Shown here one piece after another: positions 1 to 62,598 of a DNA stretch of 64,000 nucleotides. The DNA is taken from positions 32,488 through 96,487 of the forward strand of contig JAXDQU010000124.1 of assembly GCA_034667685.1 (NCBI GenBank), given 5' to 3'. This DNA comes from Thermoplasmata archaeon. GTDB lineage: Archaea; Thermoplasmatota; SW-10-69-26; JACQPN01; JAJPHT01. Position numbers and translations under genes: made by a program. Numbering within the stretch: the stretch's first letter is position 1; each line of letters starts with the position of its first letter. Below the pieces are notes generated by a model. It was not told the origin of the DNA, ran no database searches, and saw only the letters and a list, made by a program, of their open reading frames with translations.

Positions 1-291
1 CATGCCCTTCGCGAGCAGCAGCGGCGGCGTCTGCGCCAGGAGCTTGTGCTTCAGGCCGTGCGGCGGCGCGACGAGCGCCTCCAGGCTGATATCAGGCGGG
101 ATGCGGCCGCGCAGGGCGAAGTCGCCCACGTGCGTGTGCGCGTTGACGAGCGAGGGCACCAGCACGCCGGTCACGTCCGCGGGCTGGGGCGGCGCGCCGC
201 AGCCCACGCGCGCCAGGCGCCCCGCCTCCACGCCGACCCACCCCTCGACGAACTTACCCTCCTCCCAGCGCGGCCCGCGGAAGATCCTCAG
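1..291 (-). CDS. Amidohydrolase family protein, N-terminal part (runs off the window start)
   Basis: Minus frame 291->1 reads LRIFRGPRWEEGKF...LVPSLVNAHTHVGD, the HxH metal motif of the amidohydrolase superfamily. Probable CTG start overlaps the sua5 stop, with GGAGG upstream. Confidence 0.75.
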   Translation of the reverse strand, partial: MRIFRGPRWEEGKFVEGWVGVEAGRLARVGCGAPPQPADVTGVLVPSLVNAHTHVGDFALRGRIPPDISLEALVAPPHGLKHKLLAQTPPLLLAKGM

Positions 292-1253
292 CGCGACCCC
301 TCCGCCGCCTTGCGCAGGCGCTCCATGACGGCGTGCCCCACGCCCTCCTCGGGGATCGCCTCGACCACGATGGCGTCGTACCCCTCCGCGTCGAGGTCGC
401 GCAGGAGCGCGAAGAGCTGCCGCGCCCACGCCTCGGCATCGCGCCGCGAGCCCGGCACGCGCACGTCGGGCCCCACGAGGCCGCTCTCCGCCGCGGCGAC
501 GATGGCGACACGTCCCGGCAGCCCCCCCGCGGCCGCGCGCAGCCCCGCCGAATCTGATAGCACGACGCGGGCGCTTGGCGCGTAGTGCCGGTAGCGCGTG
601 CCGGGCGAGCGCGCGGAGCCCGTCTCGCGCCCGACCTCGCCGAGCGCCTCGCGGATGCGCTCCACGGGCGTGCCGCCGGGCCGGAGCACGACGGGCTTGG
701 GGCCCAGGACCGAGACGACGGTGGACTCGACGCCGACCTGCGCGGGGCCCCCGTCGAGGTAGACCGCGACCGCGTCGCCCAGGTCCTCCCGCGCGTCGGC
801 GACCCGGGTTGGGCTGGGCCGCCCCGAGCGGTTCGCGCTGGGCGCCGCGATCGGCAACCCGCTTTCCGCAAGGAGCGCGCGCGCCGCGGGGTGCGCCGGC
901 ACGCGCAGGGCCACGCTGTCGAGCCCGCCCGCCGTGATATCAGGGACCCGCGGGCCGCGCGGCACCACGAGCGTCAGGGGGCCGGGCCAGAAGGCGCGCG
1001 CGAGCGTCTCGGCGGCCGGGGGCCACGCGCGGGCCAGCGCGCGCGCCGCCGCCAGGTCGGCCACGTGCACGATGAGCGGGTTGTCGGCCGGGCGCCCCTT
1101 CGCCGCGAAGATGCGCGCCACCGCGTCGGGCCGCAGCGCGTCGGCGCCCACGCCGTACACCGTCTCCGTCGGGAACACGACGAGCGCGCCCGCCCGGAGC
1201 GCGTCGGCGGCGAGGCGAATGCCCTCCGCGTCGGGCGCGACGAGACGGCTCAT
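288..1253 (-). CDS. sua5: L-threonylcarbamoyladenylate synthase (Sua5/TsaC with SUA5 C-terminal domain)
   Basis: Motifs VFPTETVYG, KGRPADNPLIVH, APSANRSG and RHYAP. Confidence 0.95.
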   Translation of the reverse strand: MSRLVAPDAEGIRLAADALRAGALVVFPTETVYGVGADALRPDAVARIFAAKGRPADNPLIVHVADLAAARALARAWPPAAETLARAFWPGPLTLVVPRGPRVPDITAGGLDSVALRVPAHPAARALLAESGLPIAAPSANRSGRPSPTRVADAREDLGDAVAVYLDGGPAQVGVESTVVSVLGPKPVVLRPGGTPVERIREALGEVGRETGSARSPGTRYRHYAPSARVVLSDSAGLRAAAGGLPGRVAIVAAAESGLVGPDVRVPGSRRDAEAWARQLFALLRDLDAEGYDAIVVEAIPEEGVGHAVMERLRKAAEGSR

Positions 1254-1313
1254 CGGGCAAACGCACGGGAGATCGGGGGAAAGCCCTTTCGCGGCGTCGC
1301 GCCTCCGCCCCGC

Positions 1314-1892
1314 GTGCACGACGTGACGCTGCGCGGCAAGCGCGTGATCCTGGAGCCGCTCGTCCCCGCGATGGCGGAGGACCTCGCCGCCGCGATCCAG
1401 CCGGGGGACGACGTGTACCGCTGGACCAACACGAACCCGCGCACATCTGAAGAGATGCGCGCGTGGATCGAGGCGCGCGGCACGCCCCGCCCCGGCCTGC
1501 GCAACCTGGCCTTCGCGCAGCGCGACCCGGCCACGGGCCGCCTCGCGGGCAGCACGAGCCTCTTCGACGTGGACGAGAAGGCGGAAAGCGCCGAGATCGG
1601 CCACACGTGGATCGCCGCGCCCTGGCGCCGCACGGGCCTCAACACGGAGGCGAAGCTCCTGCTGCTCACCTACGCGTTCGAGACGCTGCGCCTGAAGCGC
1701 GTGCAGCTCTGCACCGACCTGCGCAACACGCGGAGCCAGGATGCCATCGCGCGCCTCGGCGCGGTCCGCGAGGGCGTGCTGCGCAACTTCCGGCGCAACC
1801 TCGAAGGCGGGCTGCGGGACACCGTGGTCTACAGCGTCATCGCGCAGGAGTGGCCCGCGACGAAGGCGCGCCTCGAAGGGATGCTACGCTGA
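1314..1892 (+). CDS. RimJ/RimL-like GNAT N-acetyltransferase
   Basis: AEIGHTWI...RTGLNTEAKLLLL...NTRSQDAIARLGA..EG.LR; GTG start. Confidence 0.9.
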   Translation: MHDVTLRGKRVILEPLVPAMAEDLAAAIQPGDDVYRWTNTNPRTSEEMRAWIEARGTPRPGLRNLAFAQRDPATGRLAGSTSLFDVDEKAESAEIGHTWIAAPWRRTGLNTEAKLLLLTYAFETLRLKRVQLCTDLRNTRSQDAIARLGAVREGVLRNFRRNLEGGLRDTVVYSVIAQEWPATKARLEGMLR

Positions 1893-2252: not shown

Positions 2253-2306
2253 GGCGGCCGCAGGCGCGGGAAATCGCTTAAGGGCTGGCGCGGAATCCCC
2301 GCCCCG

Positions 2307-4276: not shown

Positions 4277-4299
4277 CGGAGGCCAGGGTAGGAGGCTCC

Positions 4300-4581: not shown

Positions 4582-4602
4582 CATGGTTCTCCGTGGGCCG
4601 AC

Positions 4603-4719: not shown

Positions 4720-5928
4720 ATGATCGGCGAGCAGATCCGGCAGGACTTCCCGCTGCTATCAAAATTGGAGCCGCCGATCTACCTCGACAGCGCGTGCATG
4801 ACGCTGAAGCCGCGCAGCGTGATCGACGCGGTCGTCCGCTACTACGAGGAGACGCCGTTCTGCGCGGGGCGCGCGGTCTACGAGGGCTCGCTCGCCGTCG
4901 AGGAAGCGATGGAAGCGGCCCGGTGCGACCTCGCCGCGCTCCTGGGCGGCCGCCGCGAGGCGACCGTCTTCACCAAGAACGCGACCGAGGCGATCAACCT
5001 CGTCGCGCACGCCTTCCCCTGGCGCCCGGGCGACGTCGTGCTCACCACGGACCGCGAGCACAACAGCAACCTCGTGCCCTGGCAGATGCTATCAAGCCGC
5101 GGCGTCAGGCACGAGGTCGTCCCCTCGCGCGAGGACGGCACGCTCGACCTCGACGCGTGGCGCGGCCGGCTCGCGCGCGGCGACGTCGCGCTGGTGGCGG
5201 CGGTGCACGTCTCGAACCTCGACGGCTACGAGGCGCCCGTCCGCGAGCTGACCGCGATCGCGCACGAGGCCGGCGCGAAGGTCCTGCTGGATGGCGCGCA
5301 GGCCGCGGGCCACCAGCCGGTCGACCTCGGCCGGGTCGGCGCGGACTTCTATGCCGTCTCGCTCCACAAGATGCTCGGACCCACGGGTGTCGGCGCCCTG
5401 CTCGCGCGCCCCGAGGCGCTCGCCGCGCTGGGCCCGTTCATGACCGGCGGCGACACCGTCGCGCGCACCACGTACGAAGGGGCGGACCTGCTCGAAGCGC
5501 CCGCCAAGTTCGAGGCCGGGCTCCAGAACTACGCGGGGCTCGCCGGCAGCGTCGCCGCGCTCGCGTACCTCCGCGGCCTCGGGCCCGAGCGCATCCACGC
5601 GCACGCCTGCGCGCTGATGCGCCGCGCCGCGGAGGGGCTCGCGGGCGCGCCCGGCCTCGCGCTCGTGGGCGCGCCGCTGGAGACGCGCGCGGGCATCGTC
5701 CCCTTCACGCTCGACGAGCAGGATCCGCATACCCTCGCCATCCTCCTGGAGGACAAGCACCGCGTCCTCGTCCGCAGCGGCGACCACTGCCTCCACAGCT
5801 GGTTCAATGCGCGCGGCGTGCCCGGCGCCGTCCGGGCCAGCGTGGGCCCCTACACGACCGCGGCCGAGATCGACGCCTTCGTCGAGGCGACCCGGGGCCT
5901 GCTCCGCCAGCTCGCTCACAAGCGGTGA
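4720..5928 (+). CDS. Cysteine desulfurase (SufS/CsdA-like, aminotransferase class V)
   Basis: YLDSAC, EHNSN, DGAQ, SLHKMLGPTG (PLP lysine) and RSGDHC (catalytic Cys). Confidence 0.9.
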   Translation: MIGEQIRQDFPLLSKLEPPIYLDSACMTLKPRSVIDAVVRYYEETPFCAGRAVYEGSLAVEEAMEAARCDLAALLGGRREATVFTKNATEAINLVAHAFPWRPGDVVLTTDREHNSNLVPWQMLSSRGVRHEVVPSREDGTLDLDAWRGRLARGDVALVAAVHVSNLDGYEAPVRELTAIAHEAGAKVLLDGAQAAGHQPVDLGRVGADFYAVSLHKMLGPTGVGALLARPEALAALGPFMTGGDTVARTTYEGADLLEAPAKFEAGLQNYAGLAGSVAALAYLRGLGPERIHAHACALMRRAAEGLAGAPGLALVGAPLETRAGIVPFTLDEQDPHTLAILLEDKHRVLVRSGDHCLHSWFNARGVPGAVRASVGPYTTAAEIDAFVEATRGLLRQLAHKR

Positions 5929-6694: not shown

Positions 6695-7234
6695 GTGCTG
6701 AGGATCTGGACCATCGGCCACAGCAACCGGACGCCCGAGGCGTTCCTCGACCTGCTCGTCCAGAATGGCATCCAGCGCGTCGTCGACGTGCGGACCCTTC
6801 CCCGCTCGCGGCACAATGCATGGACCAGCGTGGACGCGCTGCCGGGCATCCTGGCGGCGCGCGGCATCTCCCACGCGCACCTTCCCACGCTGGGCGGCCT
6901 GCGCAAGCCGAGGCCCGAGAGCCCCAACGGCGCGTGGCGCAACGAGAGCTTCCGCGGCTACGCGGACCACATGCGCACGCCCGAGTTCGAGGAAGGGCTC
7001 GCCACGCTCCTGCGCGGGGCGGCGCGCGAGCCCACGGCGATCATGTGCGCGGAGGCCGTGCCCTGGCGCTGCCACCGCTCGCTGATCGCGGACGCCCTCC
7101 TGGCGCGCGGCGTCGAGGTGCTTGATATCATCGACGGGCCGGCCAAGCCGCATCGGATGACGCCCTTCGCGCGCGTCGTCGAGGGGCGCGTCACGTACCC
7201 GCCCGCGGGCGGCGAGCAGACGCGGCTCCTCTAG
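6695..7234 (+). CDS. DUF488 family protein
   Basis: IWTIGHSNR, DVRTLPRSR, LGGLRK and MCAEAVPWRCHR. Confidence 0.92.
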   Translation: MLRIWTIGHSNRTPEAFLDLLVQNGIQRVVDVRTLPRSRHNAWTSVDALPGILAARGISHAHLPTLGGLRKPRPESPNGAWRNESFRGYADHMRTPEFEEGLATLLRGAAREPTAIMCAEAVPWRCHRSLIADALLARGVEVLDIIDGPAKPHRMTPFARVVEGRVTYPPAGGEQTRLL

Positions 7235-8766
7235 TCGCGCGGCAGCGGCATGGGCGGCGCCAGGTCGAGCGGCGCCACGTCGCCCTTGCCCGTGAGCGAC
7301 GGTCCGGAGACCTGGACGGCGACGCCCACCTGGCGCTCGCGGCTCTGGCCGCCCACGACGTCCGCGACGTTGCCCGCGCAGCCGTTGCGCGGCACGCAGC
7401 CGTCGGTGAACGCGACGTACCAGCGCCCATCCTTGTCGTGGACCATGTCGATGAAGTCCAGGAGGTTGCGGCAGCCGTGCGGCCCGCCGCCTCCGCCTTC
7501 GAGCCAGATGCAGCCCACCTGCACGGGGTCCTCGTTGGGCGTGACCTGCGTCGTGACGAACGTGGGGCTCGCGGACTCCGCGTCGTCCACGGTGGTCACG
7601 AACAGGTGCCACGCGCTGCCCAGCGTCGCGTTGCTCGGCGAGGCGCCGGGGTCTTGCGGGTCGCGCGTGCCCACGTACGCCATGGCGAGGCGGCCGTCGG
7701 CGCCGCTGGTGATCGCGGTGAACTCGTCGAGCGTCTGGCCGGGCGGCGCGACGCGGAAGCTCTGGCAGGTCTGGAACTTGTCCTTGCTGCGGAGCAGATG
7801 CGTCATCTCGTCGTGGTCGCGGTAGAGCAGATACGCCGTGCCGTCGGGGGTGACGGTGATATCAGCGTCGATCTCGAGCTGGCCGAGCTTGGGGTCGCAT
7901 TGGCGGACGCTCCACGTGACGCCGCCGTCCTCCGAGAGCACGACGGTGAGGGGCCGCTCGCAGCGCGTGCCGCCCAGGTTGCCCAGCACGAGCGCGACGG
8001 TGCCGTCGGGGAACGCGGCCGGGTGGCCGTTGATGTTGCTGCAGAGATGGTCGTTGACGTAGACCTCGCGCTCCAGCGGGAACGACAGCCCGCCATCGAA
8101 GCTCGTCATGCACGAGGTGCCCATGCCGTCGGCCAGCCCGCCCAGGCCCGTGTCGAGCATCTTGTTGACGCACATGTAGACGAGGCTCGGGTACTGGCCG
8201 GGCGCGCGCGGGATCGTCGCGGGCGGCGGCGCCGTCATGACCTTCTGGTGGTCGAGGCCGGGCGTGGCGCAGTCGAGAGGACGCTCCGTCCACGTGTTGC
8301 CATCGTCGTCGCTCCAGCTCATCCACGTGCACAGGAGCGCAGGGTGCATCTGGTTGGCGAAGACGCGGTCCGTGCCGGCGTCCACCCACATCATGGGGTC
8401 TGACGTGCCGAACTGGTCGTCGGTCAGGGGCGCGCCGGGCGTCACGAGATCCTCGACCACCTTCCACGTCTTGCCGTGGTCGGTGCTGCGCCGCACCTGG
8501 TCGAGCGTCGTGACGAAGAGGCTGCCCTTCGACGTCACGCCGACGTTGGGCTCGGCCCCCGTGCCGGGCACGAGCTGCTCGATCCCCTTCACGACGTCGG
8601 CGGGGACCGGGCGCGCGGTGCCGTTGCCATCGTACGCCACGGGCGCCGGCCACGTGTAGGCGGTCGCGGGCTGCGCGACGGAGAGCGGCTGGAGCGGGAG
8701 CGGCGCGCCGCCCAGGCAGCCGGAGAGCAGCAGCGCGAGCGCGAGGACGATCATCCTGTTACTCAA
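7231..8766 (-). CDS. Secreted lipoprotein with BNR/Asp-box repeats (sialidase-fold beta-propeller)
   Basis: Signal peptide with LSGC lipobox; Asp boxes STDHGKTW, SDDDGNTW, SFDGGLSF and SEDGGVTW. Confidence 0.85.
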   Translation of the reverse strand: MSNRMIVLALALLLSGCLGGAPLPLQPLSVAQPATAYTWPAPVAYDGNGTARPVPADVVKGIEQLVPGTGAEPNVGVTSKGSLFVTTLDQVRRSTDHGKTWKVVEDLVTPGAPLTDDQFGTSDPMMWVDAGTDRVFANQMHPALLCTWMSWSDDDGNTWTERPLDCATPGLDHQKVMTAPPPATIPRAPGQYPSLVYMCVNKMLDTGLGGLADGMGTSCMTSFDGGLSFPLEREVYVNDHLCSNINGHPAAFPDGTVALVLGNLGGTRCERPLTVVLSEDGGVTWSVRQCDPKLGQLEIDADITVTPDGTAYLLYRDHDEMTHLLRSKDKFQTCQSFRVAPPGQTLDEFTAITSGADGRLAMAYVGTRDPQDPGASPSNATLGSAWHLFVTTVDDAESASPTFVTTQVTPNEDPVQVGCIWLEGGGGGPHGCRNLLDFIDMVHDKDGRWYVAFTDGCVPRNGCAGNVADVVGGQSRERQVGVAVQVSGPSLTGKGDVAPLDLAPPMPLPRD

Positions 8767-11700: not shown

Positions 11701-13354
11701 CGAGGTCTCGCACGCCATCGCCGTCGAGGTCGAAGGGGGCGAGCGCTTCGCCATACTGCGCCAGCGCCAATTGATAGCTCAGGTAGGAATTCTCCGCGAA
11801 GCTGCGCTCCCACGTCCAGCGAGAGGCGCCGGTGGCCGCGTCGAGCCCGACCAGGCGGAGGCTCTTGGCAGGGAAGCGCCCGCCCGGCGGGGGGAGGGTG
11901 GGCACGTCGACCAGGCCCACGCCCAGGAGCCCCTTGCCCAGCGGCGCCGCGCGGCCCCAGCCTTGCAGGCGCGCGTCCCACATGGGCGTGCCGTTGGCGC
12001 CGCGCAGCGGGACGAAGTGCGTCCGGTACTGGCCGTTCGGCGTCGCCTGGAGGCCAAGCTCCTGGCCGACCCACGAGGCCATGACATCAGGGTGGCCGTC
12101 CCCGTCGAGGTCCGCGACGGCGTACGCCTGCTCCCACTGGAGCTGCTCGACGCCCTCTTCCAGCGGCGGGCTGGCGCGCGGGGCCAGCGCATCGACGAGC
12201 GTGCGGTTCCAGCCCACCTCGCCAGACCTGCCCTCCAATGCCAGGACGGCCATCCCGCGGCCCGCCTGCGCGAGGCTCGCGCCGGTGGGATCGACGATGC
12301 CGGTGGCGCGCGGGCTCTCCAGCGTCGTCTGGTCGAGCACGATCTCGGGCCAGGCGTCGCCGTCGAGGTCGGTGGCGCTCGCGAGCCACGTCAGGTTCGT
12401 GACCTTGCCGTCGGCCGCGAGGTCGCGCGTCCACATCGTGGTGCCGTTGGCCGCGTCGAGCGCGAGGACGTGGTCGGTCGCCGCGGCGGCGTCGTACGAG
12501 AAGGGCGTCTGGAAGGGCAGGTCGAGCGAGTTGCCGATCTGGGCGTTGGTGAAGCCGATGGGGTCCTCGGCCTTTTGCTCCAGGACGTCGGTGGTCTGGA
12601 GCACGACCTCGGCGCCATGCGGCGTGCGGGCCACCATGAGGCCCGTCGGGAAACCCTGGATGGAACGGACGAAGACGCTCGCGAAGCCATAGAGGGGCGC
12701 TGCGTCGTCGGCGCGCGTGTCGCGCCCATCCAGAGCGCGCGTCCAGAGCGGGCGGCCGTCCTTGCCCGAGAGCGCCTTGACGATGGCCGCGTACGTGACG
12801 ACCTGGACGTTGCTCTGCGTGGGCGGCGCGTCCAGCCTCGTGCCGGGCTGGTAGCCGAACGCCACGACGTCGCATGCGCCGTCCCCGTTGAGGTCGGGCG
12901 CCGCGACGACGTTGCGGGGCGCGTCGGGGACCGGCTGGCCGAGACGCTGCCACGAGTCGCCATCGTCGCGCAGCGTGACGGCGAAGAGGTTGTCGGCGGC
13001 CCAGAGCTGCGAGCCGTTGGCGCCGCTCCACGCGACGACCTTGGAGGGGGCGTCCTCCAGCCGCGGGGGCGCGCGCAGGTCGAGGTCGTTCGAGATCATG
13101 TCGGGGACGCCGTCTCCGTCGAGGTCGCACGTCGCGTGCACGTCGCGGTACGTCGTGCGCGGCGCGTTCCCGTCCACGGCCGCGGCCGCGGCGGCCTCCG
13201 TCGCGCCCGGCGGGAGCGCGCCCATCCGCTCCATCTGCGCGAGGAAGGCCGGACCCATGCCTCCCACCTGCGGCGCGACCTGGGGCGCGCTGGCCCGGGC
13301 CGGCGCGAGGGGCGCCAGGAGCAGCACGGCCAGGAGCGCGGGGAGCAGCCTCAT
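8759..13354 (-). CDS. Large membrane-anchored surface protein (1531 aa) with FG-GAP/DxDGDG and PQQ-type beta-propeller repeats
   Basis: N-terminal signal peptide, many DLDGDG and 'dG..G..lW' motifs, an internal pair of hydrophobic helices and a C-terminal TM. Confidence 0.85.
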   Translation of the reverse strand: MRLLPALLAVLLLAPLAPARASAPQVAPQVGGMGPAFLAQMERMGALPPGATEAAAAAAVDGNAPRTTYRDVHATCDLDGDGVPDMISNDLDLRAPPRLEDAPSKVVAWSGANGSQLWAADNLFAVTLRDDGDSWQRLGQPVPDAPRNVVAAPDLNGDGACDVVAFGYQPGTRLDAPPTQSNVQVVTYAAIVKALSGKDGRPLWTRALDGRDTRADDAAPLYGFASVFVRSIQGFPTGLMVARTPHGAEVVLQTTDVLEQKAEDPIGFTNAQIGNSLDLPFQTPFSYDAAAATDHVLALDAANGTTMWTRDLAADGKVTNLTWLASATDLDGDAWPEIVLDQTTLESPRATGIVDPTGASLAQAGRGMAVLALEGRSGEVGWNRTLVDALAPRASPPLEEGVEQLQWEQAYAVADLDGDGHPDVMASWVGQELGLQATPNGQYRTHFVPLRGANGTPMWDARLQGWGRAAPLGKGLLGVGLVDVPTLPPPGGRFPAKSLRLVGLDAATGASRWTWERSFAENSYLSYQLALAQYGEALAPFDLDGDGVRDLVTPAQPAFETGRDQALLATSSHVYEVRSGVDGHVLQTLSAWGPDGRVVACGDAGTKLTVVSGHARRVDVTRLDASSGQTLWRVPLHSSSAPHAATTGIELEALGAGCAGLPGGATLAWADLQDFSFERRHEVITPRARIANDGSLVWRSPNLSSPASTQPLSLASVDAPPAPLAPRVAWGVVVGVALGLALGLATLLALSRLPLKLLAAGVVLVVLVTALPVSPALSLSLGGRAPLPSPPPTLLPPPTEAATPEPNATTQRVFDDNDTLAFTYPIGDVTGDGRADVVADVYCVVRYDCEGAFRLPEDADHEAIWRCPPEHRLFGLDGARGTVAWAVDLNENSTQMGCSNARVVGTMRLANGTGIVVERTRVERPSLLFGAAVSLHEIAMIDARDGATLWRWAFQGREAEDGVMASQADTFFIQTFVASGALFVEGVGWSVGEVKSYVSAPGFNNGPILLDRYDSVEWVARLDPQTGHVAWRTDTFTADPAASREAWILDAAYAERDEDAPPVSVKDRAWDPAPCCPDLDGDGVPDVLYRENVWSPTPNANTGPRDFDVHLVAFGGATGKKLWDQTIRRDVPATTGAHPYPNPRLRLAAELNVPAHEVRILATADLDGDGASDVILRERLTGSEPRDVLSARSGRDGHLLWSREAPRAIDAALLGDSDGDGAADLVATEWYATSEDRAVVQPAHVFVLSGRTGKTLWTATSLEAPADVAYFLDAMRRAGIVDVNGDGVGEVPVDRPELLGDQTVLHHLSFLDGRTARPLSTVSCVGTFCSPIAAPDANGDGRREMGVLSGDVNDLWLTLYDGAGGGAIWSRRVSAVSTTGYAEALPYVSLQGLAQPDGRQDVLVDVHLAASQLQEGIFLTGNGSESLLYELDTVMPQLMLVTSRTGASTWSLPHLQQADLLAHVPGATPGEQAVEKLEAAAARTPFSVQDEGAPVLVPSILSGVGAFAGVVAVGGMLLRFRRLDKGVPDLE

Positions 13355-13363
13355 GATATCATC

Positions 13364-32178: not shown

Positions 32179-32493
32179 ATGGCCTGGCCCGACGCCATCG
32201 CCGTCTTCAGCGGCGTCCTCGTCCTCGCCTTCGGCCTCACCATCCTCTTCTCCGGTCTCTTCACCGCCTACTTCGGCGCGGGCAAGAGCCGAAAGATCGG
32301 CCTCGGCCTCGTCATCGTGGGCCTGCTGACGCTCTTCGCCTGGACGACCATCACGTTCAACATCCGCGTCATCACCACGGTGGACGCCTGGAACGCCGAC
32401 CAGATGGGCGTGGGCGTCGCCGGCGTCGTCGCCGGGGCGCTGGGCGGCCTCGTCGCGCTCGGGCTCTTCCTCGTCGCGATCATGCGGGCGTGA
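32179..32493 (+). CDS. Small three-TM membrane protein
   Basis: Hydrophobic ORF with GLFTAYFGAGKSR; immediately follows the Lrp-domain gene. Confidence 0.8.
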   Translation: MAWPDAIAVFSGVLVLAFGLTILFSGLFTAYFGAGKSRKIGLGLVIVGLLTLFAWTTITFNIRVITTVDAWNADQMGVGVAGVVAGALGGLVALGLFLVAIMRA

Positions 32494-37205: not shown

Positions 37206-37209
37206 TATC

Positions 37210-41727: not shown

Positions 41728-42581
41728 ACGGCTTCGCGCTGGCCGCCTACCGCGCGCTCGGGCCGCAGGCGCGCAAGCGCGCCGACCCCAAGCTCCAGAA
41801 GCTCCTCCAGCAGGCGCACCTGGGCATGCGCGCCGACGCGTTCCTCGCCACGCTCTGGCTGGCGAGCGCTTGCGCAGGCGCGGGCGTCGCGCTCCTGACG
41901 CTGCTGCTCGCGATCGCGCTCCACGCGCCGCTCGCGCTCGTCGTGCTATCACCGCTCGTCCTGGGCCCGCTCGCGGCCGGCTGGGGCGTCGCGCTCGGGC
42001 CCGCGTGGCTCCAGAACCGCGCGAAGGAGGTCGCCCAGGAGATCGACGAGGCGCTGCCCAGCGGCCTCAACCACATGCTCGCGCTCGCCAACGCCGGCAT
42101 GCCGCCCGCGCAGATCTGGGGCAGCCTCGCCCGCGCGGAGGCGTTCGGCGCGCTCGCCCGCGAGGCCGCGCGCATCCACCGCGACCTCGCGCTCTTCAGC
42201 CATGATATCCTGACTGCCCTCCGCGCGGCGCAGGAGCGGACGCCCAGCAAGCGCTTCCACGAGTTCCTCCAGGGCGCGATCAGCAGCTTCCAGAGCGGCG
42301 TCGACCTGGAGGACTACCTCAAGACGCGCGGGCTCCAGTACCAGCACGCCGCGCAGCAGGAGCAGGCCGCCACCATCGACGCGATGGGCGTCATGGCCGA
42401 GGCTTTCCTCGTGGTCGTGGTCGCCGCGCCGCTCTTCCTGATGATCCTGCTCTCCGTGATGGCCGTGAGCCAGGGCAAGGGCATCGTCGCGTACGGGCTC
42501 GCGCTCTCGCTGATCTTCCTGCCGCTCGCCCAGCTCGTCGTGGGCGCGCTGATCCAGGGCATGAACCCCAAGTCGTGGTGA
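41724..42581 (+). CDS. Type II secretion system F domain protein (TadB/TadC/ArlJ-like platform)
   Basis: IDEALP, ERTPSKRF.EFL.G and TMs; GTGA overlap with the ATPase. Confidence 0.9.
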   Translation: MNGFALAAYRALGPQARKRADPKLQKLLQQAHLGMRADAFLATLWLASACAGAGVALLTLLLAIALHAPLALVVLSPLVLGPLAAGWGVALGPAWLQNRAKEVAQEIDEALPSGLNHMLALANAGMPPAQIWGSLARAEAFGALAREAARIHRDLALFSHDILTALRAAQERTPSKRFHEFLQGAISSFQSGVDLEDYLKTRGLQYQHAAQQEQAATIDAMGVMAEAFLVVVVAAPLFLMILLSVMAVSQGKGIVAYGLALSLIFLPLAQLVVGALIQGMNPKSW

Positions 42582-42585: not shown

Positions 42586-43470
42586 ATGGCGACCGTGACC
42601 TTCGCGCCCCGCAAGCGCTTCGTCCTGGACGGACGCCCGATCGCGATCTCGCTGGGGCTCGCCGCGGGCGCCGCGGTGATGCTATCAGGCGCGCTCACGC
42701 TCGCGGGCCGGATCGGCGCGCGCCCCACGCGCGGCCTCGACCTGATCGCGCTGGGCTTCCTTCTCGCCGCGAGCCCGCTGGCCTTCGTCGTCTGGGCGAA
42801 GCGCCGGCGCGCGAGGGGCATGGACGAGCGCCTGCCCGACTTCCTCACCGACGTCGCGAGCCTGCACAAGGCGGGCCTGCCGCTCCAGGAGAGCGTCACC
42901 GCCGCCGCGGAGGGCAGCTACGGCCCGCTCGACCCGGCCGTCAGGGCGGCCGCCGACCAGGTGCGCTGGAACCTGCCCGTCCTCGCCGTGCTGGAGAACC
43001 TGCGCCGGCGCATCGGCACGCCGCTCGCCACGCGCACCTTCACCGTCGTCATCGAGGCGGGACGAACCGGCGGCAACGTGCCCGAGGTGCTCGAGATCGC
43101 GGCGCAGAACGCGCGCGCCACGGTGCAGATGAAGCAGCAGCGCGCCCGCGCGATGAGCCTCTACACGATCATCACGTACGTCGCGAGCCTCGTCTTCGTG
43201 GGCGTGGCGCTCGCCATGCAGACGGTCTTCGTGCCGCGCATGATCGCCGCGTTCGGCGCCACCGGCTCGGCCGGCCACGGCATCGGCCTCGCCAGCGCCC
43301 TCCCCGACGCCGACAGCTTCCGCACCATGTTCTACGTCGGCGCGCTCGTGCAGGCCGCCGGCAACGGCATCATCGGGGGCGTCATGAGCGAAGGCTCGCC
43401 CGGCGCGGGGCTGCGGCACTCGTGCGTCATGGTCGCCATCTGCGCCGCGGGGTTTGCGATCGTGGGATGA
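42586..43470 (+). CDS. Type II secretion system F domain protein (TadC-like platform)
   Basis: ERLPDFL.D, YG.L, GG.V.EVL, G.MSEGS..AGL.H and TMs. Confidence 0.9.
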   Translation: MATVTFAPRKRFVLDGRPIAISLGLAAGAAVMLSGALTLAGRIGARPTRGLDLIALGFLLAASPLAFVVWAKRRRARGMDERLPDFLTDVASLHKAGLPLQESVTAAAEGSYGPLDPAVRAAADQVRWNLPVLAVLENLRRRIGTPLATRTFTVVIEAGRTGGNVPEVLEIAAQNARATVQMKQQRARAMSLYTIITYVASLVFVGVALAMQTVFVPRMIAAFGATGSAGHGIGLASALPDADSFRTMFYVGALVQAAGNGIIGGVMSEGSPGAGLRHSCVMVAICAAGFAIVG

Positions 43471-52699: not shown

Positions 52700-53082
52700 A
52701 GTTGGTTTGGGCGATCCACCCGCGCGCAGCGAAGCGCGTCGGGCAGCGTTCGGAGCCGCCAGCCCCCTTGGGGGCGTCCCTCCATTCCGGCCCCCGTATT
52801 TGAGCGTTCGGACGACCTGCCCAGCCGCCCCGCATCGTGGCTCACCAACGCCGACCGTTTGGCCGGGCGGGAGCGGCGCGGGCGTCTTCCCTTGCGCCGC
52901 TCGCTCGTCGTGGTCCCGGTCGTCCTCGCCCTCCCTCATGGGCGCCGCCGCACGTGATATCACGCCCGCGCTGCCGCGGTACCCGGGAGGACATCGGACG
53001 AGCCGCGTCAGCACGGGCGTGGGCGCGGGACGGCGCTTCGGCCTCGCCCAAGCCTCAAGACCCACGCGGCCCTCGCAGGCGC

Positions 53083-54085: not shown

Positions 54086-55147
54086 GTGCGCGCCGAGGCC
54101 CTGCTGCCCGACCTGATCCGTCGCGCCGGCCGCTCGCCCCACGACGTGATCGCAGGCGTGGCGCCGCACCTCGCCGCGCTCGGGTTCGCAGAGCGCCGCA
54201 CGCGCGAGGGCCCCGAGGCCGTGCTCTTCACGCGCGGCAAGCCGACCCTCTGCCTCTCGGGGCACGTCGACGTCGTCCCGGAAGGCGAAGGGTGGACGCG
54301 CGACCCGCACGGCGGCGAGACCGCCGAAGGCCGCATCTGGGGCCGCGGCGCGTGCGACATGCTCGGCGCGGTCGCGGCCTACGCCGGCGCCGCCGGCCTC
54401 GCGCCCGACGCGCCTTGCGCCATCCTCCTCACCACCGACGAGGAGACGAAGATGGGCGCCGCCGAAGGCGCGCTGCGCGACGGATTGCTATTGGGCATCC
54501 GCGGCGTCGTCGTGGGCGAGCCCACCTCGTTCGCCGTGGGACGCGCCGAGAAGGGCGTCCTCTGGCTGCGCGTCCGCACGCAGGGACGCAACGCCCACGG
54601 CAGCATGCCCGAGCTGGGCGACAACGCCGCCGACCGGCTCGTGCGCGCGCTCCATGCCCTCCAGGGCGCGCCGCTCCCGGGCCGCCACCCGCTCCTGGGC
54701 GCGCCGACGCTGAGCTTGGGCAAGCTCGCCAGCGGCGAGGCCGTCAACCAGGTGCCCGCGAGCGCCGCCGCGGAGCTTGATATCAGATACCTGCCCGGCA
54801 TGGCCCATGATCAGGTGAACGTTCACCTGACCACGGCGTTCGCGCGGGCCGGCGAGTCGCCGCGCGTCGAGACGCTCGGCCACCACCCGCCCTTCGAGAC
54901 GCCCGAGGACGCGCCGCTCGTGCAGGCTGCCGTCCGCGCGGTGGCGAAGGCCCGCGGCGCCGCGCCGCCCGTGCTGGGCTTGCCCTACGGCACGGAGGCG
55001 TCGCGCTATGCGCCCGCGGGCTTCCCGTGCGTGATCCTCGGGCCCGGCGAGCAGGCGCTCGCGCACACGAACCAGGAGAGCATCGCCATCGCCGCGCTGC
55101 GCGAGGCCGAGGAGACGTACGCCTTCCTCCTGCGGGACGCGGCATGA
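54086..55147 (+). CDS. M20 family metallopeptidase (ArgE/DapE-like)
   Basis: GHVDVVP, GRGACDM, DEE, GEPT and AH..QE. Confidence 0.92.
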   Translation: MRAEALLPDLIRRAGRSPHDVIAGVAPHLAALGFAERRTREGPEAVLFTRGKPTLCLSGHVDVVPEGEGWTRDPHGGETAEGRIWGRGACDMLGAVAAYAGAAGLAPDAPCAILLTTDEETKMGAAEGALRDGLLLGIRGVVVGEPTSFAVGRAEKGVLWLRVRTQGRNAHGSMPELGDNAADRLVRALHALQGAPLPGRHPLLGAPTLSLGKLASGEAVNQVPASAAAELDIRYLPGMAHDQVNVHLTTAFARAGESPRVETLGHHPPFETPEDAPLVQAAVRAVAKARGAAPPVLGLPYGTEASRYAPAGFPCVILGPGEQALAHTNQESIAIAALREAEETYAFLLRDAA

Positions 55148-56248: not shown

Positions 56249-59248
56249 TTGAACCCGAGGCTCTGGTGGGCGCTGGGCGCGTTCGCGCTCGCCCTCGCCC
56301 TCCTGGCGCCCGCCCTGGCGCCGCTCCCCGCGAGCATGGACCAGTTCGCGGGCGACCTGGCGAACGGCACGTTCCGCCCGTTCGGGCCGCCCCCGGGCAC
56401 GGGGCTCGGGCCGGGCAACGCAGGCTCGCTGGGCGGGCTCTCCGGGCTCTCGACGGGCAACTTCGTCCCGGGGGCCGGCGAGGTGCCGCCCAGCTGGGAG
56501 ATGGACCGCAACCCGCTCTCGGGCAACGTCGTCATCGACTACGTCTGCAACCCGAGCCCGGGCGCCATGCAGCGCTTGAAGGCGTACGACATGCTCGGGT
56601 CGGACGCGCGGACGCTCCAGGTCGCCGACGCGCGCCTGCACACGCTCGGCGCGCAGCGCGGCCTCCCGTATGATAGCACGGTCTCGTGCAGCTTCCCGGT
56701 GCAGCTCGCCGCGAACGTGCCGGTGCCCATCTACAGCGTGGCGCCCGAGGGGTACGCGCTTCCCTCGTACACGACGGACCCGCCGCTGCCGGGCGGCCTG
56801 GCGTTCCTCAAGGACGGCGCGGACACGGTGTACGTCCTCGCCAGCGAGACGAAGCGCGTCACGCTCAACGTCACGTACCTCGTGGACAGCGACTACTTCG
56901 CCTTCCAGCCCAACGCGCGCTGGCGCGCCTCCGACTACCCCGCGGGCCTCGTGCCGGCGCTGCCTTCGGGCGTGGCGGACGCGGCGAAGATCGTCCTCGC
57001 GCGCGCGGGCGTGAGCGATGCGACGCAGGTGGGTCCCACGCTGGAGGCGTTGAACGCCTACTTCCGTGGCTTCACCGACGGCCCGATCCCGGGGCCCGAC
57101 GAGGTGGAGAGCCTCTACCTGGCGCTCGCGCTCTCGGGGCACGGCTGCTGTCGGCACCGCGCGTTCGCGTACATGGTCACGGCGCAGGCCGCCGGCATCC
57201 CGACGCGCGTCGTCGTCAACGAGGCGCACGCGTTCCCGGAGGTGCTCTTCCCGGACGGCACGTGGCACCAGGTGAACCTGGGCGGGTGCGGCACGTACTC
57301 GCTCAACAATCCGAACAACTATCCTTCGCTCTTCGACCAGGCGGCCGATCCGCGCCAGCAGGCGAACCCGGACCAGGGGCGGCCGCAGACGGTCGTCGGG
57401 ACGTTCACGAACATCACCGACGCGCCGGCGCGCATGGTCAAGGGCGACACGTACTTCGTGAACGGCACGGTGGAGGCGAGCAACGGGCGCCCGGTGGCTG
57501 GCGCGCCCGTGGACCTCTACCTGAACGCGACGAAGACCACGCGCGGCAAGCTCATGACGTCGGGGCAGAGCGATGCGAACGGGCGCTTCGCGATCCAGGC
57601 GCGGGTGCCCGGCGACGTGCCGGCGCAGGGCTATCAATTGGTGGCGAGCGCGGGGACGGTCTCGGCGGGTCCGTTGCGCTACGAGGCGTCGTGGAGCGAT
57701 CCAGCCGTGGACGTGTTCACGCCGACGCGCATCGTGCTGGCCAAGTCCACCGCCGCGGCGGGCTTCCCCGCGAACGCGACTGGCCGCCTCGTGGACGTGG
57801 ACGGCAACCCCGTCGGGCCCGCGCGGATCGACTGGACCTTGCAAGGCGTGGCGCTCGATCCGGTGCAGGCGGACGCGAGCGGCCTCTTCACGGCGCGCTT
57901 CCTCGCCAACGGCACCGGCAACGTCACGCTATCGTTCTCCTACGCGGGGGACGCGCACCACGGCCCCACCACCGCCAGCGAGAGCGTGCCGGTCGACCGC
58001 GGCACGGTGCTCCTTCCCGCGCAGGCGCCCGAGCTCTTGCGCGGGCAGCGCGGCTTCCTCTCGGGCACGGTCGCGATCCAGGGCGCGCAGCTGGGCGGCC
58101 GCCAGGTCGCGGTCTACCTCTCGCTCTCGAACCTGACGGGCGCGGCGCTCGCGCGCGCGGCGCCCGACGCCACCGGCGCGACGGACGCGGGCGGGCACTT
58201 CGTCGCCTCCTTCGACGTCCCGCCCCGCGCGGCGCCGGGCGTCTACAACGCCATCTACGTCGTGCGCGACCTCAACGTCACCGCGACCGGGCTCGCGCAG
58301 ATCCTCGTGAAGCCCACGCTCGCGATCGACGTCCCCGCGCGCATCGGGCCCGCGCAGGCGTGGACCGCGCTCGCCACCGTCGCGTCGGACGACGGCTCGC
58401 CCATCGCGGGCGGGATCGTGGAGCTCCGCTTCGACCGCAACGCGAGCGCGGCGCGCACGCTCCTGACCAATGCGAGCGGCGTGGCGCGCTTCGAGATGGG
58501 CGGCGGCGCGCTGCCCGCGGGCGACCACCAGGTCTCGCTCGTCTTCGCCGGCGACCGCGTCACCGCCACCGCGACGCAGGACGCGACGCTCCGCGTGCTC
58601 CCGCCCTTCTGGGCGCTGATCCCGCCGTGGGCGTGGCTGGCGCTCCTCGCGGTCCTGCTGGTGGCCGGGCTCGTCGCGCTGCTGCTGCGGCCCCAGGGCG
58701 CGTTCCGCCGCGTCGTGCTCCGCCCGCGCTGGCGCGTCGAGCTGTCGTGGCCCGGCTTCGAGCCGGGCATGGCGCCGATGGCCGAGCCGGGCGGCGCGTT
58801 GCGCGTGCGGGCGCGCCTCCTCGACGCGCAGGGGCGCGAGCGCCGCGCGCGCTTCCTCGTGCAGACGGCCGGGCAGCGCGTGCGCACGCGCGACGAGGCC
58901 ACGCTCGACGCGCCGCAGGAAGAAGGCGCGCTCGCCCTCGACGTGCGGCCCGGCGGGCGCGGGCGCTGGCTCGCGGCGCCGGCCCACGCGCGCGTGCCCG
59001 TCGCGACGTACCGCCGCGCGGTGGAGGACGGCTTCGTCGCGCTCCGCGCCCGGGCGGGGCTCGACCCGAGCGCCACGCCAGACGAGCTCGTCGAAGCGCT
59101 CGCCCCGCGCGCGCCGCGCGAGAGCCTCGTGGCCGCCGCGCGCCTCTTCGAGCTGGCCGACTTCAGCGAGGTGGGCGTGGACCGCGCGTTCTACGACGCG
59201 TTCGCCGCCGCGCGCCGCGACGTCGAGGAGGCGATCGCGCGTGGCTGA
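56249..59248 (+). CDS. Secreted, membrane-anchored transglutaminase-like protein with Ig-like repeats and a DUF4129-like C-terminus
   Basis: GCCRHRA...GIPTR...NEAHAFPEV...W..VNLGG; TTG start; TM in the C-terminal quarter. Confidence 0.85.
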   Translation: MNPRLWWALGAFALALALLAPALAPLPASMDQFAGDLANGTFRPFGPPPGTGLGPGNAGSLGGLSGLSTGNFVPGAGEVPPSWEMDRNPLSGNVVIDYVCNPSPGAMQRLKAYDMLGSDARTLQVADARLHTLGAQRGLPYDSTVSCSFPVQLAANVPVPIYSVAPEGYALPSYTTDPPLPGGLAFLKDGADTVYVLASETKRVTLNVTYLVDSDYFAFQPNARWRASDYPAGLVPALPSGVADAAKIVLARAGVSDATQVGPTLEALNAYFRGFTDGPIPGPDEVESLYLALALSGHGCCRHRAFAYMVTAQAAGIPTRVVVNEAHAFPEVLFPDGTWHQVNLGGCGTYSLNNPNNYPSLFDQAADPRQQANPDQGRPQTVVGTFTNITDAPARMVKGDTYFVNGTVEASNGRPVAGAPVDLYLNATKTTRGKLMTSGQSDANGRFAIQARVPGDVPAQGYQLVASAGTVSAGPLRYEASWSDPAVDVFTPTRIVLAKSTAAAGFPANATGRLVDVDGNPVGPARIDWTLQGVALDPVQADASGLFTARFLANGTGNVTLSFSYAGDAHHGPTTASESVPVDRGTVLLPAQAPELLRGQRGFLSGTVAIQGAQLGGRQVAVYLSLSNLTGAALARAAPDATGATDAGGHFVASFDVPPRAAPGVYNAIYVVRDLNVTATGLAQILVKPTLAIDVPARIGPAQAWTALATVASDDGSPIAGGIVELRFDRNASAARTLLTNASGVARFEMGGGALPAGDHQVSLVFAGDRVTATATQDATLRVLPPFWALIPPWAWLALLAVLLVAGLVALLLRPQGAFRRVVLRPRWRVELSWPGFEPGMAPMAEPGGALRVRARLLDAQGRERRARFLVQTAGQRVRTRDEATLDAPQEEGALALDVRPGGRGRWLAAPAHARVPVATYRRAVEDGFVALRARAGLDPSATPDELVEALAPRAPRESLVAAARLFELADFSEVGVDRAFYDAFAAARRDVEEAIARG

Positions 59249-60284: not shown

Positions 60285-60285
60285 C

Positions 60286-61287
60286 ATGGACGCACCCGTC
60301 CCCGCCACCACGCCCCACCCGTCCTGCGCGCGCATCCTCGACGGCGTCGCCGCGACGTTCGTGGGCGACCGGATCCTCCTGCGCAAGATGCTCGCGGGCG
60401 CGCTCGCCAACGGCCACATCCTCTTCGAGGATCACCCGGGCCTGGGCAAGACGCTGCTCGTGAAGGCGTTCGCGCGCGCCATCGGGTGCGAGAGCCGCCG
60501 CGTCCAGTTCACGCCCGACCTTCTCCCCGGCGACATCCTGGGCACGCACGTCTGGAGCAGCAAGGACGAGCGCTTCGCCCTCGCGCGCGGCCCCGTGTTC
60601 ACCAACATCCTCCTCGCGGACGAGATCAACCGCGCCCCTCCCAAGACACAGAGCGCCCTGCTCGAAGCGATGGAGGAGCGCCAGGTCACGATCGAAGGCG
60701 AGACGCACCAGCTTCCCACGCCGTTCTTCGTGCTCGCCACGCAGAACCCCCTGGAGCAGGAGGGCACGTACCCGCTGCCCGAGGCGCAGCTCGACCGCTT
60801 CATCCTCCGGCTCACGACGGGCTATCCCAAGGACGTCGAGAGCGAGACGGAGATCCTGCGCCGGCGCCTCGCGTGGAAGAAGGACGACCCGACGAAGGAG
60901 CTCAAGCCCGTCGTGGACGGCGAGGGCTTCCGCCGCATGCAGGAGGAGGTCGAGGACAAGGTGTACGTCCACCCCGCGCTCCTGGTCTACATCAGCAAGC
61001 TCGTGCGCGGCGTCCGCGAGCACCCGCACGTGAGCGCCGGCCCCTCCCCGCGCGGCGCGCTCTCGCTCCTGCGCCTCAGCCGCGCCAACGCCTACGTCTC
61101 GGGGCGCAACTTCGTGACGCCCGACGACGTGAAGATCTACGTGGAGGACGCGCTGGCCCACCGCCTGCTGCTCGACGTCGAGCGCGCGCTGGAAGGCCGC
61201 GAGGAGCGCGCCGTGGTGCGCGAGGTGCTCGACAAGACGGAGGCGCCGCTGCGCTTCGGCTCGGCCGAGGCGCCCAAGCGCGGGTGA
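60286..61287 (+). CDS. MoxR family AAA+ ATPase
   Basis: HILFEDHPGLGKT, DEINRAPPKTQSALLEAM and YPLPEAQLDRF. Confidence 0.95.
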   Translation: MDAPVPATTPHPSCARILDGVAATFVGDRILLRKMLAGALANGHILFEDHPGLGKTLLVKAFARAIGCESRRVQFTPDLLPGDILGTHVWSSKDERFALARGPVFTNILLADEINRAPPKTQSALLEAMEERQVTIEGETHQLPTPFFVLATQNPLEQEGTYPLPEAQLDRFILRLTTGYPKDVESETEILRRRLAWKKDDPTKELKPVVDGEGFRRMQEEVEDKVYVHPALLVYISKLVRGVREHPHVSAGPSPRGALSLLRLSRANAYVSGRNFVTPDDVKIYVEDALAHRLLLDVERALEGREERAVVREVLDKTEAPLRFGSAEAPKRG

Positions 61288-61290
61288 GCG

Positions 61291-62598
61291 ATGGCGCTCT
61301 TCAGCCGCGCCGGCGTCGCGCTCGCCACCGCCGGGCTCGGGCTCCTGGGACTGGGCATGTCCGTGGGCAACCTGTCGCTCCTGATCCTGAGCGCGTTCCC
61401 GCTCTCGCTCCTGGCGTGGTCGCTGGCGACGCGCCCCGCCGGTGATATCACGGGCCAGCGCGCCCTCTCCACGGCCGCGCCGCGCCGGGGCGAGCGCGTC
61501 GAGATGACGATCCGCACGGAGACGCCGCGGGCCGGCGACATCATCGAGGTCCACGCGCCGCTCCCCGAGAGCGCGTCGCTGGAGGGCGCCGACACGAACC
61601 TCGCGGCGCACCACGGCGCGGGCGCGCGCGGGCTCGTCGTGGGCTTCCGCGTCCACAAGCGCGGCCCCGTGATGCTGCCCGCCGTCACCGCCGAGCGCAT
61701 CGACGCGCTGGGCCTCCTCGCGCCGCGCGTGGGCGAGGTCGCGCCGCCGCTGGCGATGCGCGTGGCGCCGCGGGGCTATCCCAGCGAGAGACTCCGGCGC
61801 AAGGGCGCCATGGCGCTGCGCGTGCAGCCGACCCGGCTGGGCATCGGGAGCGCGGACTTCCGCGAGCTGCGCGACTACGCGTGGGGCGACCCGCCCAAGA
61901 GCATCCACTGGCGCGCGACGGCCCGCAGGCTCTCGGCGGCCGCGGGCCGCGGCGGGGCCGCGGCCGCTCCGATCGTCAAGGAGTACGACAAGGAGGGCCG
62001 GCGCGCCGCGCTCGTGCTCCTGGACGGGGGCGAGTCGCTGCGCATCGGCACGTCGCTGGAGAGCGGGCTCGACCACGCGGTCGAGGCCGCGCTGGCCGCG
62101 TGCCGCCTGCTCCTCGCCGCGGGCGTGCGCGTGGGCGCCGCGACGTACCACGCCAAGGGCGCGACGCCGGAGCCGCCCGAGTCCGGCGCGGGGCAGATGC
62201 CGCAGCTCGAGCGTGCGCTCTCGCCGGGCGAGCCCGACCCGGCCGCGGGCCCGGCGCGCGCCCTGCAGCAGCTCACGCCGCACCTGCGCGGCATGCGTCC
62301 GGTCGTCGTCGTGGTCACGCGCGTCACGCCCGCCAACGCGCAGGGGCTCGCCGAGCTCGCGGGCCAGATGCGCGTGCTGCTGCGCGAGCGCGCCAAGCGC
62401 CTCCCGCTGGTCGTGCTCGACGTGCGCGCGCTGTCGCTCGTGCCTTCGCGCGGCGAGGCGTGGGACGCGGCGGCCGCGCTGGTCGCCCGCGAGGATGGCG
62501 AGGCCGCGCGGCGCGTCGAAGGGCTGGGCGCGCGCGTCCTCCCCTGGAAGCCGGGCGACGACGTGCATGCGCTCCTGGCGCGGGAGGGGATCGCATGA
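61291..62598 (+). CDS. DUF58 (vWA-like) domain protein
   Basis: DFRELRDYAWGDP.K.IHWRATAR...VKEY. Confidence 0.9.
   Translation: MALFSRAGVALATAGLGLLGLGMSVGNLSLLILSAFPLSLLAWSLATRPAGDITGQRALSTAAPRRGERVEMTIRTETPRAGDIIEVHAPLPESASLEGADTNLAAHHGAGARGLVVGFRVHKRGPVMLPAVTAERIDALGLLAPRVGEVAPPLAMRVAPRGYPSERLRRKGAMALRVQPTRLGIGSADFRELRDYAWGDPPKSIHWRATARRLSAAAGRGGAAAAPIVKEYDKEGRRAALVLLDGGESLRIGTSLESGLDHAVEAALAACRLLLAAGVRVGAATYHAKGATPEPPESGAGQMPQLERALSPGEPDPAAGPARALQQLTPHLRGMRPVVVVVTRVTPANAQGLAELAGQMRVLLRERAKRLPLVVLDVRALSLVPSRGEAWDAAAALVAREDGEAARRVEGLGARVLPWKPGDDVHALLAREGIA

Follow-up and report, generated by a model that had tools for sequence, protein, structure and literature searches.

We analyzed a 64,000-nucleotide stretch of the genome of a Thermoplasmata archaeon (the window; positions 32488 to 96487 of contig C124) and found that the palindromic octamer TGATATCA and its variants TGCTATCA and TGATAGCA, together written TGMTAKCA, form a real, strong, and genus-specific DNA-level signal of the highly iterated palindrome (HIP) kind. 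The assembly that holds the window (G000) comprises 3,481,428 bases in 124 contigs at 71.1% GC. It belongs to a genus of uncultured soil archaea with GC-rich genomes, whose genes have taken up the word at the expense of rare codons and, in places, of amino acid changes. We propose, with a probability of roughly 45%, that TGMTAKCA is a word resembling the cyanobacterial palindrome HIP1, by which a symmetric factor would recognize the organism's own DNA.

The octamer was noticed from the letters of the window. The original prediction listed 12 exact copies of TGATATCA and 8 copies of TGCTATCA or TGATAGCA, and we found every one of them in its place, which gives 20 matches to TGMTAKCA. All 16 of the near-copies that it cited also lay at their exact positions, each within one mismatch of TGMTAKCA. 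Dinucleotide shuffling of the window (100 shuffles) predicts 0.07 copies of TGATATCA, with a maximum of 1, and 0.46 matches to TGMTAKCA, with a maximum of 3. At one mismatch or fewer from TGATATCA, we counted 27 matches, compared with 2.53 expected. GC content in 4-kb bins of the window ranges from 0.69 to 0.76, and the AT-rich spelling of the word makes each copy stand out from the background of a 71% GC genome.

We found that the enrichment is genome-wide, as had been proposed, and not confined to the window. There are 378 copies of TGATATCA in the genome, compared with a zero-order expectation of 4.0 (94-fold), and this is the highest observed-to-expected ratio among all 8-mers of the genome. 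Markov models of orders 1 to 3 predict 2 to 11 copies. Higher orders absorb the excess, because the constituent 5- to 7-mers mostly derive from the word itself. The variants TGCTATCA and TGATAGCA occur 173 and 156 times (329 in all), each compared with 9.9 expected. The three forms together amount to about 700 sites, or one per 4.9 kb. We considered TGATA as the true, shorter unit and rejected it, since 57% of TGATA occurrences lie within the three full forms and the remainder have no comparable excess.

The excess also outlasts a null model that preserves every protein and the codon usage of each gene. We shuffled synonymous codons within each of 2172 confident open reading frames (ORFs; 2.46 Mb, 30 shuffles) and recounted the words. 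TGATATCA is present 248 times in these ORFs, compared with a shuffled mean of 5.0 and a maximum of 12. For TGCTATCA the observed count is 167 (mean, 7.4; maximum, 13), and for TGATAGCA it is 59 (mean, 1.3; maximum, 3). Two control palindromes were found at about their shuffled expectation (CGATATCG, 28 versus 22.1; TCGATCGA, 54 versus 54.5).

The word is not tied to one reading frame. In 295 of the 378 genomic copies, TGATATCA reads nnT GAT ATC Ann (phase 2), and in 9 it reads nTG ATA TCA (phase 1). The TGA of the word serves as a stop codon in 33 copies, 14 of which are stop/start junctions of the form TGATATCATG, including the two operon junctions of the window at 13354 and 37203; a start codon adjoins 26 copies, and 31 are intergenic. 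Overall, 304 of the 378 copies lie within genes, and 74 lie at gene ends or in spacers. The variant is mainly read as nTG CTA TCA and less commonly as nnT GAT AGC Ann or TGC TAT CAn. The TGA-first frame is unusable within genes and the word otherwise occupies several frames; therefore, the signal is at the level of DNA and is independent of frame. Beyond the word we found no conserved bases within 20 nucleotides, only the three-base periodicity of coding sequence. The suggestion that the flanks are often AT-rich is thus not true in general: copies flanked by AATTG are few (18, 25, and 7, both strands counted). The sequence GCTGATATC is present in the window at 85, 22960, 23919, and 37201.

A promoter or TATA role was considered and rejected, as the 104 copies that are not interior to genes showed no cluster at positions -25 to -35; an ATG adjoins 27 of them. 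As a separate observation, copies lie 0 to 2 nucleotides ahead of start codons at C106:130997-131483 and in other ribosomal-protein operons (C19, C20, and C78). The small translation genes downstream of these copies are, by eye, those for S28e, L24e, S17, and RpoN, and the copies are often preceded by GG, which yields a Shine-Dalgarno-like GGTGAT.

We found that whatever maintains the word acts on the entire octamer. Asp-Ile is followed by a codon beginning with A at 511 sites. The word in the form T GAT ATC A is present at 233 of these (about 46%), while GAT makes up 11% of Asp codons overall. The usual spelling C GAC ATC A accounts for 139, and the two single-step intermediates account for just 26 and 34. 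The imprint extends to the proteins. An A-initial codon follows Asp-Ile in 38.0% of cases (n = 1673), compared with 16.4% after other residues paired with Ile and 18.7% overall. The surplus of about 330 tripeptides is about the number of in-frame copies; thus, the word has also shaped protein sequence. In archaea, then, a force that acts on DNA can remodel both the choice of codons and the local sequence of proteins.

The pattern of tolerated mismatches is equally specific. The lone single-mismatch neighbor with strong enrichment (17-fold) is the change of A to C at position 3, equivalent to T to G at position 6. Changes at positions 1 and 8 are moderately enriched (CGATATCA, 8-fold), and CGATATCG, in which both outer positions are altered, shows no excess. 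Positions 2 and 7 tolerate no change (0 to 1 copies), and TGGTATCA is found at 0.3 times its expectation. We also observed that the doubly variant form TGCTAGCA is depleted genome-wide (3 copies versus a zero-order expectation of 24); it contains CTAG, which is possibly avoided for separate reasons.

To follow the word through evolution, we compared G000 with the relative G003 in 783 gene pairs, whose alignments total 675 kb at about 75% amino acid identity; in the first subset, four-fold sites are 64% identical. Sixteen copies of TGATATCA are common to the same place in both genomes, out of 83 in G000 and 34 in G003. For the variants, the 93 copies in G000 and the 36 in G003 have 14 in common. 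At sites that encode Asp-Ile-A in both species, presence in one genome is associated with presence in the other (two-by-two counts, 16 and 15 over 3 and 38; odds ratio, 13.5; p = 3e-5). The word is kept at 16 of 31 such sites, whereas GAT is kept as GAT in 83 of 647 ordinary GAT codons. We concluded that, for this one species pair, the word is retained at orthologous sites well above ordinary rare codons.

Copies private to G000 show how the word is written. At 61 such sites, G003 differs at 3.39 of the 8 positions, compared with 1.58 per 8 nucleotides in the flanks, and at 28 of them the difference is at least 4 positions. These differences often include Val/Ile changes and changes of the next residue. 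The sequence CGACGTGC is the counterpart eight times (both directions counted). All of these alignments show substitutions and not insertions. Against the outgroup G007, 15 copies of G000 could be aligned; none is present there as the word, and 3 of the 15 keep the tripeptide, which is about the background rate. We conclude that the system is older than the divergence of the species, that its copies persist, and that further copies continue to arise. The codon null, the genome-wide count, the frames, and the orthologous sites all agree with the original prediction of a genome-wide cis signal that is kept by selection or by a biased process.

The signal has a sharp phylogenetic boundary. We examined 15 species genomes of the order, 5 from the genus of the window and 10 others. 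TGATATCA occurs 378, 210, 141, 111, and 53 times in the five genus genomes and 0 to 7 times in the other ten; for the variant pair, the counts are 329, 151, 229, 72, and 63, compared with 1 to 10. The ratio of variant to canonical copies varies from 0.65 to 1.6 across the species of the genus, a mild "dialect" effect. In G003 (1.2 Mb, 71.8% GC), TGATATCA is again the top 8-mer, with 73 copies versus 1.2 expected. The sister genus represented by G007 showed no excess in 0.3 Mb at 70.9% GC, and its genome has 5 copies in all. The word is thus lacking in sister genera of equal GC content, and among the five species that have it the strength of the signal differs by a factor of about seven. Because the contrast is this sharp, the cause should be findable, and the gene for the reader or writer of the word is expected among those acquired when the genus arose.

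Raw counts of 100 to 430 are reached in some families among the 401 genomes of the phylum that were sampled. Pieces of four such genomes (G077, G082, G261, and G115), at 39 to 47% GC, hold only 2 to 9 times the expected number of copies, and the word ranks from 70 to beyond 10000 there; these high counts are thus compositional. A 7-kb piece of a fifth genome, G284, had no copy. We therefore rejected a second enriched lineage in the phylum, on the basis of 5 of about 400 genomes sampled as pieces.

Along the genome, the number of copies of the three forms in each 10 kb follows a Poisson-like distribution (variance/mean, 0.98), and the coefficient of variation of the spacing is 1.0; the largest contig, at 167 kb, is too short to reveal long periods. 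Spacings below 200 bp are in deficit (14 versus 28 expected). Copy counts rise with local GC (r = 0.36), and two low-GC contigs are depleted (C42, 3 versus 12.7 expected; C118, 7 versus 16.5 expected). C42 spans 62.6 kb at 66.4% GC and C118 spans 81.5 kb at 67.4% GC; both may be foreign islands or extrachromosomal elements. When genes are binned by codon typicality, the lowest decile has a density of 0.67 copies per 10 kb and the middle bins have 2.4 to 2.6; the word occupies just 23% of the Asp-Ile-A sites of that decile, compared with 51 to 59%. The most codon-biased genes also have a lower density, which we did not use as evidence because each copy itself lowers the GC content at third codon positions, making the comparison partly circular. 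In three soil metagenome runs of fragmentary coverage, none of the 40 listed differences (of 303) fell within a copy, and nothing follows from this.

We propose the following model. Our data show that copies arise in place through point substitutions, and not as an inserted repeat, wherever the encoded protein tolerates the word. The scarcity of intermediates, the clustering of substitutions inside the word, and the imprint on the proteome show a directional force on the entire octamer. Existing copies are kept across species, with few in codon-atypical genes. The reader of the word may be a DNA-binding or DNA-modifying protein, dimeric and with two-fold symmetry, that originated in the ancestor of the genus. 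If binding energy is summed over two half-sites, one perfect TGAT could compensate for a slightly imperfect second half. The strictness of G2 and C7 would fit such contacts, and A and C at position 3 both offer an amino group in the major groove, which might explain why either is accepted. By analogy with HIP1, the function is most likely a mark of own DNA for recombination, repair, or DNA exchange between members of the species, and not gene regulation.

Several points weigh against this proposal. We identified no reader protein in our gene searches. No genus-specific DNA methyltransferase was found in the four families searched (PF01555, PF02086, PF00145, and PF02384), and the conserved methyltransferase L134, described below, showed no genus-specific change in its variable region. 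ComEC (PF03772) was found in 0 of the 15 order genomes, and DprA (PF02481) was found in none of the five genus genomes and once in the order outside the genus; neither family covers archaeal uptake systems. We found no ParB-like gene in G000. Poisson-like spacing gives no sign of the ordered placement that a structural organizer might need, and uptake sequences are several-fold denser than one copy per 4.9 kb. The function is argued by analogy only, and the mechanism of HIP1 is itself unsettled. Finally, the support has limits in its materials: gene calls were our own (3481 genes, 87% coding), and the orthologue set covers 1.2 of the 3.8 Mb of one relative, G003.

The candidates that these searches returned have distributions that do not match that of the word. 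Full-length methyltransferases of the four families are either common to motif-free genera or private to single genomes, and orphan-looking methyltransferases are present in every genome of the taxonomic family. C5 methyltransferases, a beta-class SPPY methyltransferase, and PD-(D/E)XK proteins, including those with PDDEXK_1 (PF12705), are found in motif-rich and motif-free genera alike, and a MutS-like gene (MutS_V) is family-wide. As machinery for the word, we rejected ComEC, DprA, MutS_V, PDDEXK_1, and ParB, whose phyletic patterns do not fit. We also screened the 3481 predicted proteins with the regular expression [DNS]PP[YFWH], which gave 32 matches; Pfam scans covered 19 of them and 1 more together with its neighbors, and the other 12 were inspected by eye only. 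Two DNA methyltransferases emerged, one order-conserved and one private to G000. The conserved one (L134, C106:108965-109963) is a beta-class SPPY orphan, presumably N4-cytosine-like. In the order, 9 further genomes, some with the palindrome and some without, encode it at 58 to 75% identity. The other (L132, C97:3115-4446) is a 443-residue methyltransferase-like protein in which the S-adenosylmethionine-binding motif precedes DPPY (alpha-class order); it has no close relative among the 30 related genomes searched. On contig C118, in addition, an open frame of 1090 residues includes a Dam-like stretch that is found in G000 only.

Two explanations compete with the proposed recognition word, and we consider each of them unlikely. 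One is biased repair linked to methylation, as in Elhai's model of HIP, in which an amino-methyltransferase acts at position 3 (A, or C in the variant) and mismatch correction guided by methylation shields existing sites and converts near-cognate ones, so that the word spreads as a by-product and single sites have no function. The word is a palindrome of the restriction-modification type, and the lone tolerated internal change, A to C, retains an exocyclic amino group. M.EcoRV methylates, in GATATC, the base that equals position 3 of the word. The orphan-looking methyltransferases of the family also favor this model, and HIP1 abundance is reported to accompany cognate orphan methyltransferases (PMC4390886). 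In contrast, the four families searched hold no genus-specific candidate, neither G000 nor G001 yielded a Vsr, and single-step neighbors of the word, instead of being depleted, exceed their level in the Asp-Ile-G context about 6-fold. A bias toward correcting one mismatch also explains poorly the many new copies (the 28 of 61 private sites) that need 4 to 6 changes, including amino acid changes. The other explanation, to which we give no better odds, is that the copies are binding sites of a nucleoid- or chromosome-organizing protein, each kept by selection. The sites of Noc, SlmA, and MatP are bacterial palindromes scattered through genes, and a single ribbon-helix-helix dimer, such as MetJ, covers a palindrome of 8 bp. 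The dimer-like half-site logic, the even cover of native DNA genome-wide, and retention at orthologous sites are all consistent with an organizer, and Xu et al. favor such a role for HIP1 (PMC5861425). Against this, the spacing is Poisson-like, G000 has no ParB-like gene, and the five genus genomes contain 21 RHH_1 genes, all of which lack a copy within 300 nucleotides. Moreover, about 700 sites, with about 46% of permissive Asp-Ile-A sites converted, far exceed the tens of sites of known organizers.

Two further explanations we regard as highly improbable. The word could be a by-product of codon, dipeptide, or composition bias, or of selection for off-frame stop codons, given that TGA lies on both of its strands. 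That 295 of 378 copies encode Asp-Ile in one frame and that low-GC relatives, too, have many copies in absolute number would fit such a by-product, but codon shuffling leaves 5.0 of 248 copies, and the variant uses other frames and other peptides. Composition is further contradicted by the sister genus genome G007, which at 70.9% GC has 5 copies, and by the four low-GC relatives, whose pieces reach just 2 to 9 times expectation. T GAC ATC A, which offers the same off-frame TGA, is not favored (26 copies versus 233); therefore, selection for hidden stop codons is ruled out. The copies could also be the remains or targets of a mobile element, such as miniature inverted-repeat transposable elements, hairpins like those of repetitive extragenic palindromes, or insertion footprints. 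We found no duplicated 44-nucleotide context among the 378 copies of TGATATCA or among the 329 variant copies. Without flank homology or duplicated contexts, the word is not a mobile repeat. Consistently with this, 304 of 378 copies lie in genes, in frame, and arise in orthologous alignments by substitution.

The copies of the window are listed with their coding context and, where available, their state in relatives.

Table 1. Copies of the three forms of TGMTAKCA in the window (positions are those of the window)
Form	Position	Context and state in relatives
TGATATCA	87..94	minus-strand gene, CCT GAT ATC AGC (P-D-I-S); orthologous site in G003 is TGATGTCG
TGATAGCA	555..562	minus-strand gene, sense GTG CTA TCA GAT (V-L-S-D); aligned site in G003 is TGATATCA
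TGATATCA	935..942	CCT GAT ATC ACG (P-D-I-T); TGATATCA also in G003 and G004; TGACGTCG in G001
TGCTATCA	4754..4761	CTG CTA TCA AAA (L-L-S-K); relatives have TGCTGTCG, TGCTGTCA, or TCCTCGCG
TGCTATCA	5087..5094	ATG CTA TCA AGC (M-L-S-S); TGCTATCA kept in G003, not in G001 or G004
TGATATCA	7123..7130	CTT GAT ATC ATC (L-D-I-I)
TGATATCA	7857..7864	minus-strand gene, GCT GAT ATC ACC (A-D-I-T); copies in outgroup G006 are TGATGTCG, G001 is TCATGTCT
TGATATCA	13354..13361	minus-strand gene junction TGATATCATG; TGA ends ORF 13359-15263 and last A of the word is the A of ATG of ORF 8759-13354; kept as TGATATCA in G001
TGCTATCA	21925..21932	CTG CTA TCA CGC (L-L-S-R)
TGATATCA	22962..22969	GCT GAT ATC ACC (A-D-I-T)
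TGATATCA	23921..23928	GCT GAT ATC ACG (A-D-I-T)
TGATAGCA	25378..25385	AAT GAT AGC ACG (N-D-S-T)
TGATATCA	37203..37210	junction TGATATCATG of an archaeal-type thiolase gene and a DUF35/BbsA-like gene; TGA ends the former and last A of the word opens the ATG of the latter
TGATATCA	37422..37429	CTT GAT ATC AAG (L-D-I-K)
TGCTATCA	41944..41951	GTG CTA TCA CCG (V-L-S-P)
TGCTATCA	42680..42687	ATG CTA TCA GGC (M-L-S-G)
TGATATCA	52955..52962	intergenic by our own gene calls
TGATATCA	54778..54785	CTT GAT ATC AGA (L-D-I-R)
TGATAGCA	56671..56678	TAT GAT AGC ACG (Y-D-S-T)
TGATATCA	61443..61450	GGT GAT ATC ACG (G-D-I-T)

Elsewhere in the genome, we came across two loci of separate interest. The region C51:6000-18223 (L188) is a provirus- or plasmid-like stretch that encodes a Prim-Pol, an ATP-dependent ligase with a WGR domain, and a phage zinc-finger protein, along with a C5-methylase fragment and a DPPY protein to which we gave no assignment. 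At C34:152721-155609 (L139) lies a RecQ helicase of the bacterial type (DEAD, Helicase_C, RecQ_Zn_bind, and HRDC) in this archaeal genome.

Among known systems, the word resembles the sites of Noc, SlmA, and MatP in that these too are palindromic words scattered through coding DNA chromosome-wide. Those sites number in the tens and show regional exclusion, whereas here about 700 Poisson-spaced sites are found in a genome in which no ParB-like gene was detected. Targets of restriction-modification systems are avoided in the host, whereas this word is 94-fold enriched. It shares with the DNA uptake sequences of Neisseriaceae and the uptake signal sequences of Pasteurellaceae a restriction to one lineage, the use of permissive frames, an imprint on the proteome, depletion in foreign DNA, and species dialects. 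In contrast to them, it is palindromic and about 5 to 10 times sparser, and neither ComEC nor DprA was found in the genus. Like Chi, the site of RecBCD and AddAB, it is a lineage-specific 8-mer found inside genes about once per 5 kb. Chi marks self DNA for repair, but it is an asymmetric sequence whose orientation follows replication; this word reads the same on both strands. We identified no RecBCD/AddAB-type machine, and the PD-(D/E)XK domain proteins that we did find also occur in motif-free genera.

To our knowledge, no sequence-specific DNA uptake is known in archaea. We consider it rather unlikely that TGMTAKCA is the first "own DNA" sequence tag in Archaea, with a genus-specific dimeric reader that favors conspecific uptake, recombination, or repair. 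If it were, copies would spread through the population by biased fixation, overwriting codons and amino acids, and archaea would have an analogue of uptake sequences or Chi whose evolution was independent of the machineries known from bacteria.

The original prediction knew of no description of this motif in archaea, and our literature search bears this out. We found none of TGATATCA as a genomic signal, the matches listed being primers or unrelated uses. There was no archaeal highly iterated palindrome among the titles listed, although supplementary files of the HIP1 papers, which lay outside the search, may list HIPs from outside the cyanobacteria. A search for archaea with uptake sequences returned only unrelated literature. 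The word "archaea" is absent from the text of PMC4390886, which ties HIP1 to cognate methyltransferases.

The closest likeness is to HIP1 itself. HIP1 is reported with a 15- to 300-fold excess, conservation, and periodicity, with periodic placement at 10 to 90 kb (Xu et al. 2018, PMC5861425). Methylated HIP1 is reported to boost transformation, with a Chi-like or uptake-like role proposed (preprint 10.1101/2024.09.10.611283), and HIP1 is reported to correlate with type IV secretion genes (PMC13756078). Like HIP1 (GCGATCGC) and the alternate cyanobacterial HIPs (PMC4390886, PMC5861425), the word is a palindromic octamer in tens- to hundreds-fold excess that is lineage-specific, written into coding DNA by substitution, and kept at orthologous sites. 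It differs from HIP1 in having no cognate lineage-specific methyltransferase in the four families searched and in a density that is about 5 to 10 times lower (one copy per 4.9 to 9 kb). It differs further in its host, an archaeal genus; in its AT-rich spelling in a 71% GC genome; and in its defined degenerate position (M/K). The archaeal nature of the host is supported by the placement of its relatives in an archaeal phylum and by the archaeal-type thiolase pair of the window. For thirty years the HIPs of cyanobacteria have been a puzzle, and this archaeal case is independent of them, in another domain and at the opposite base composition.

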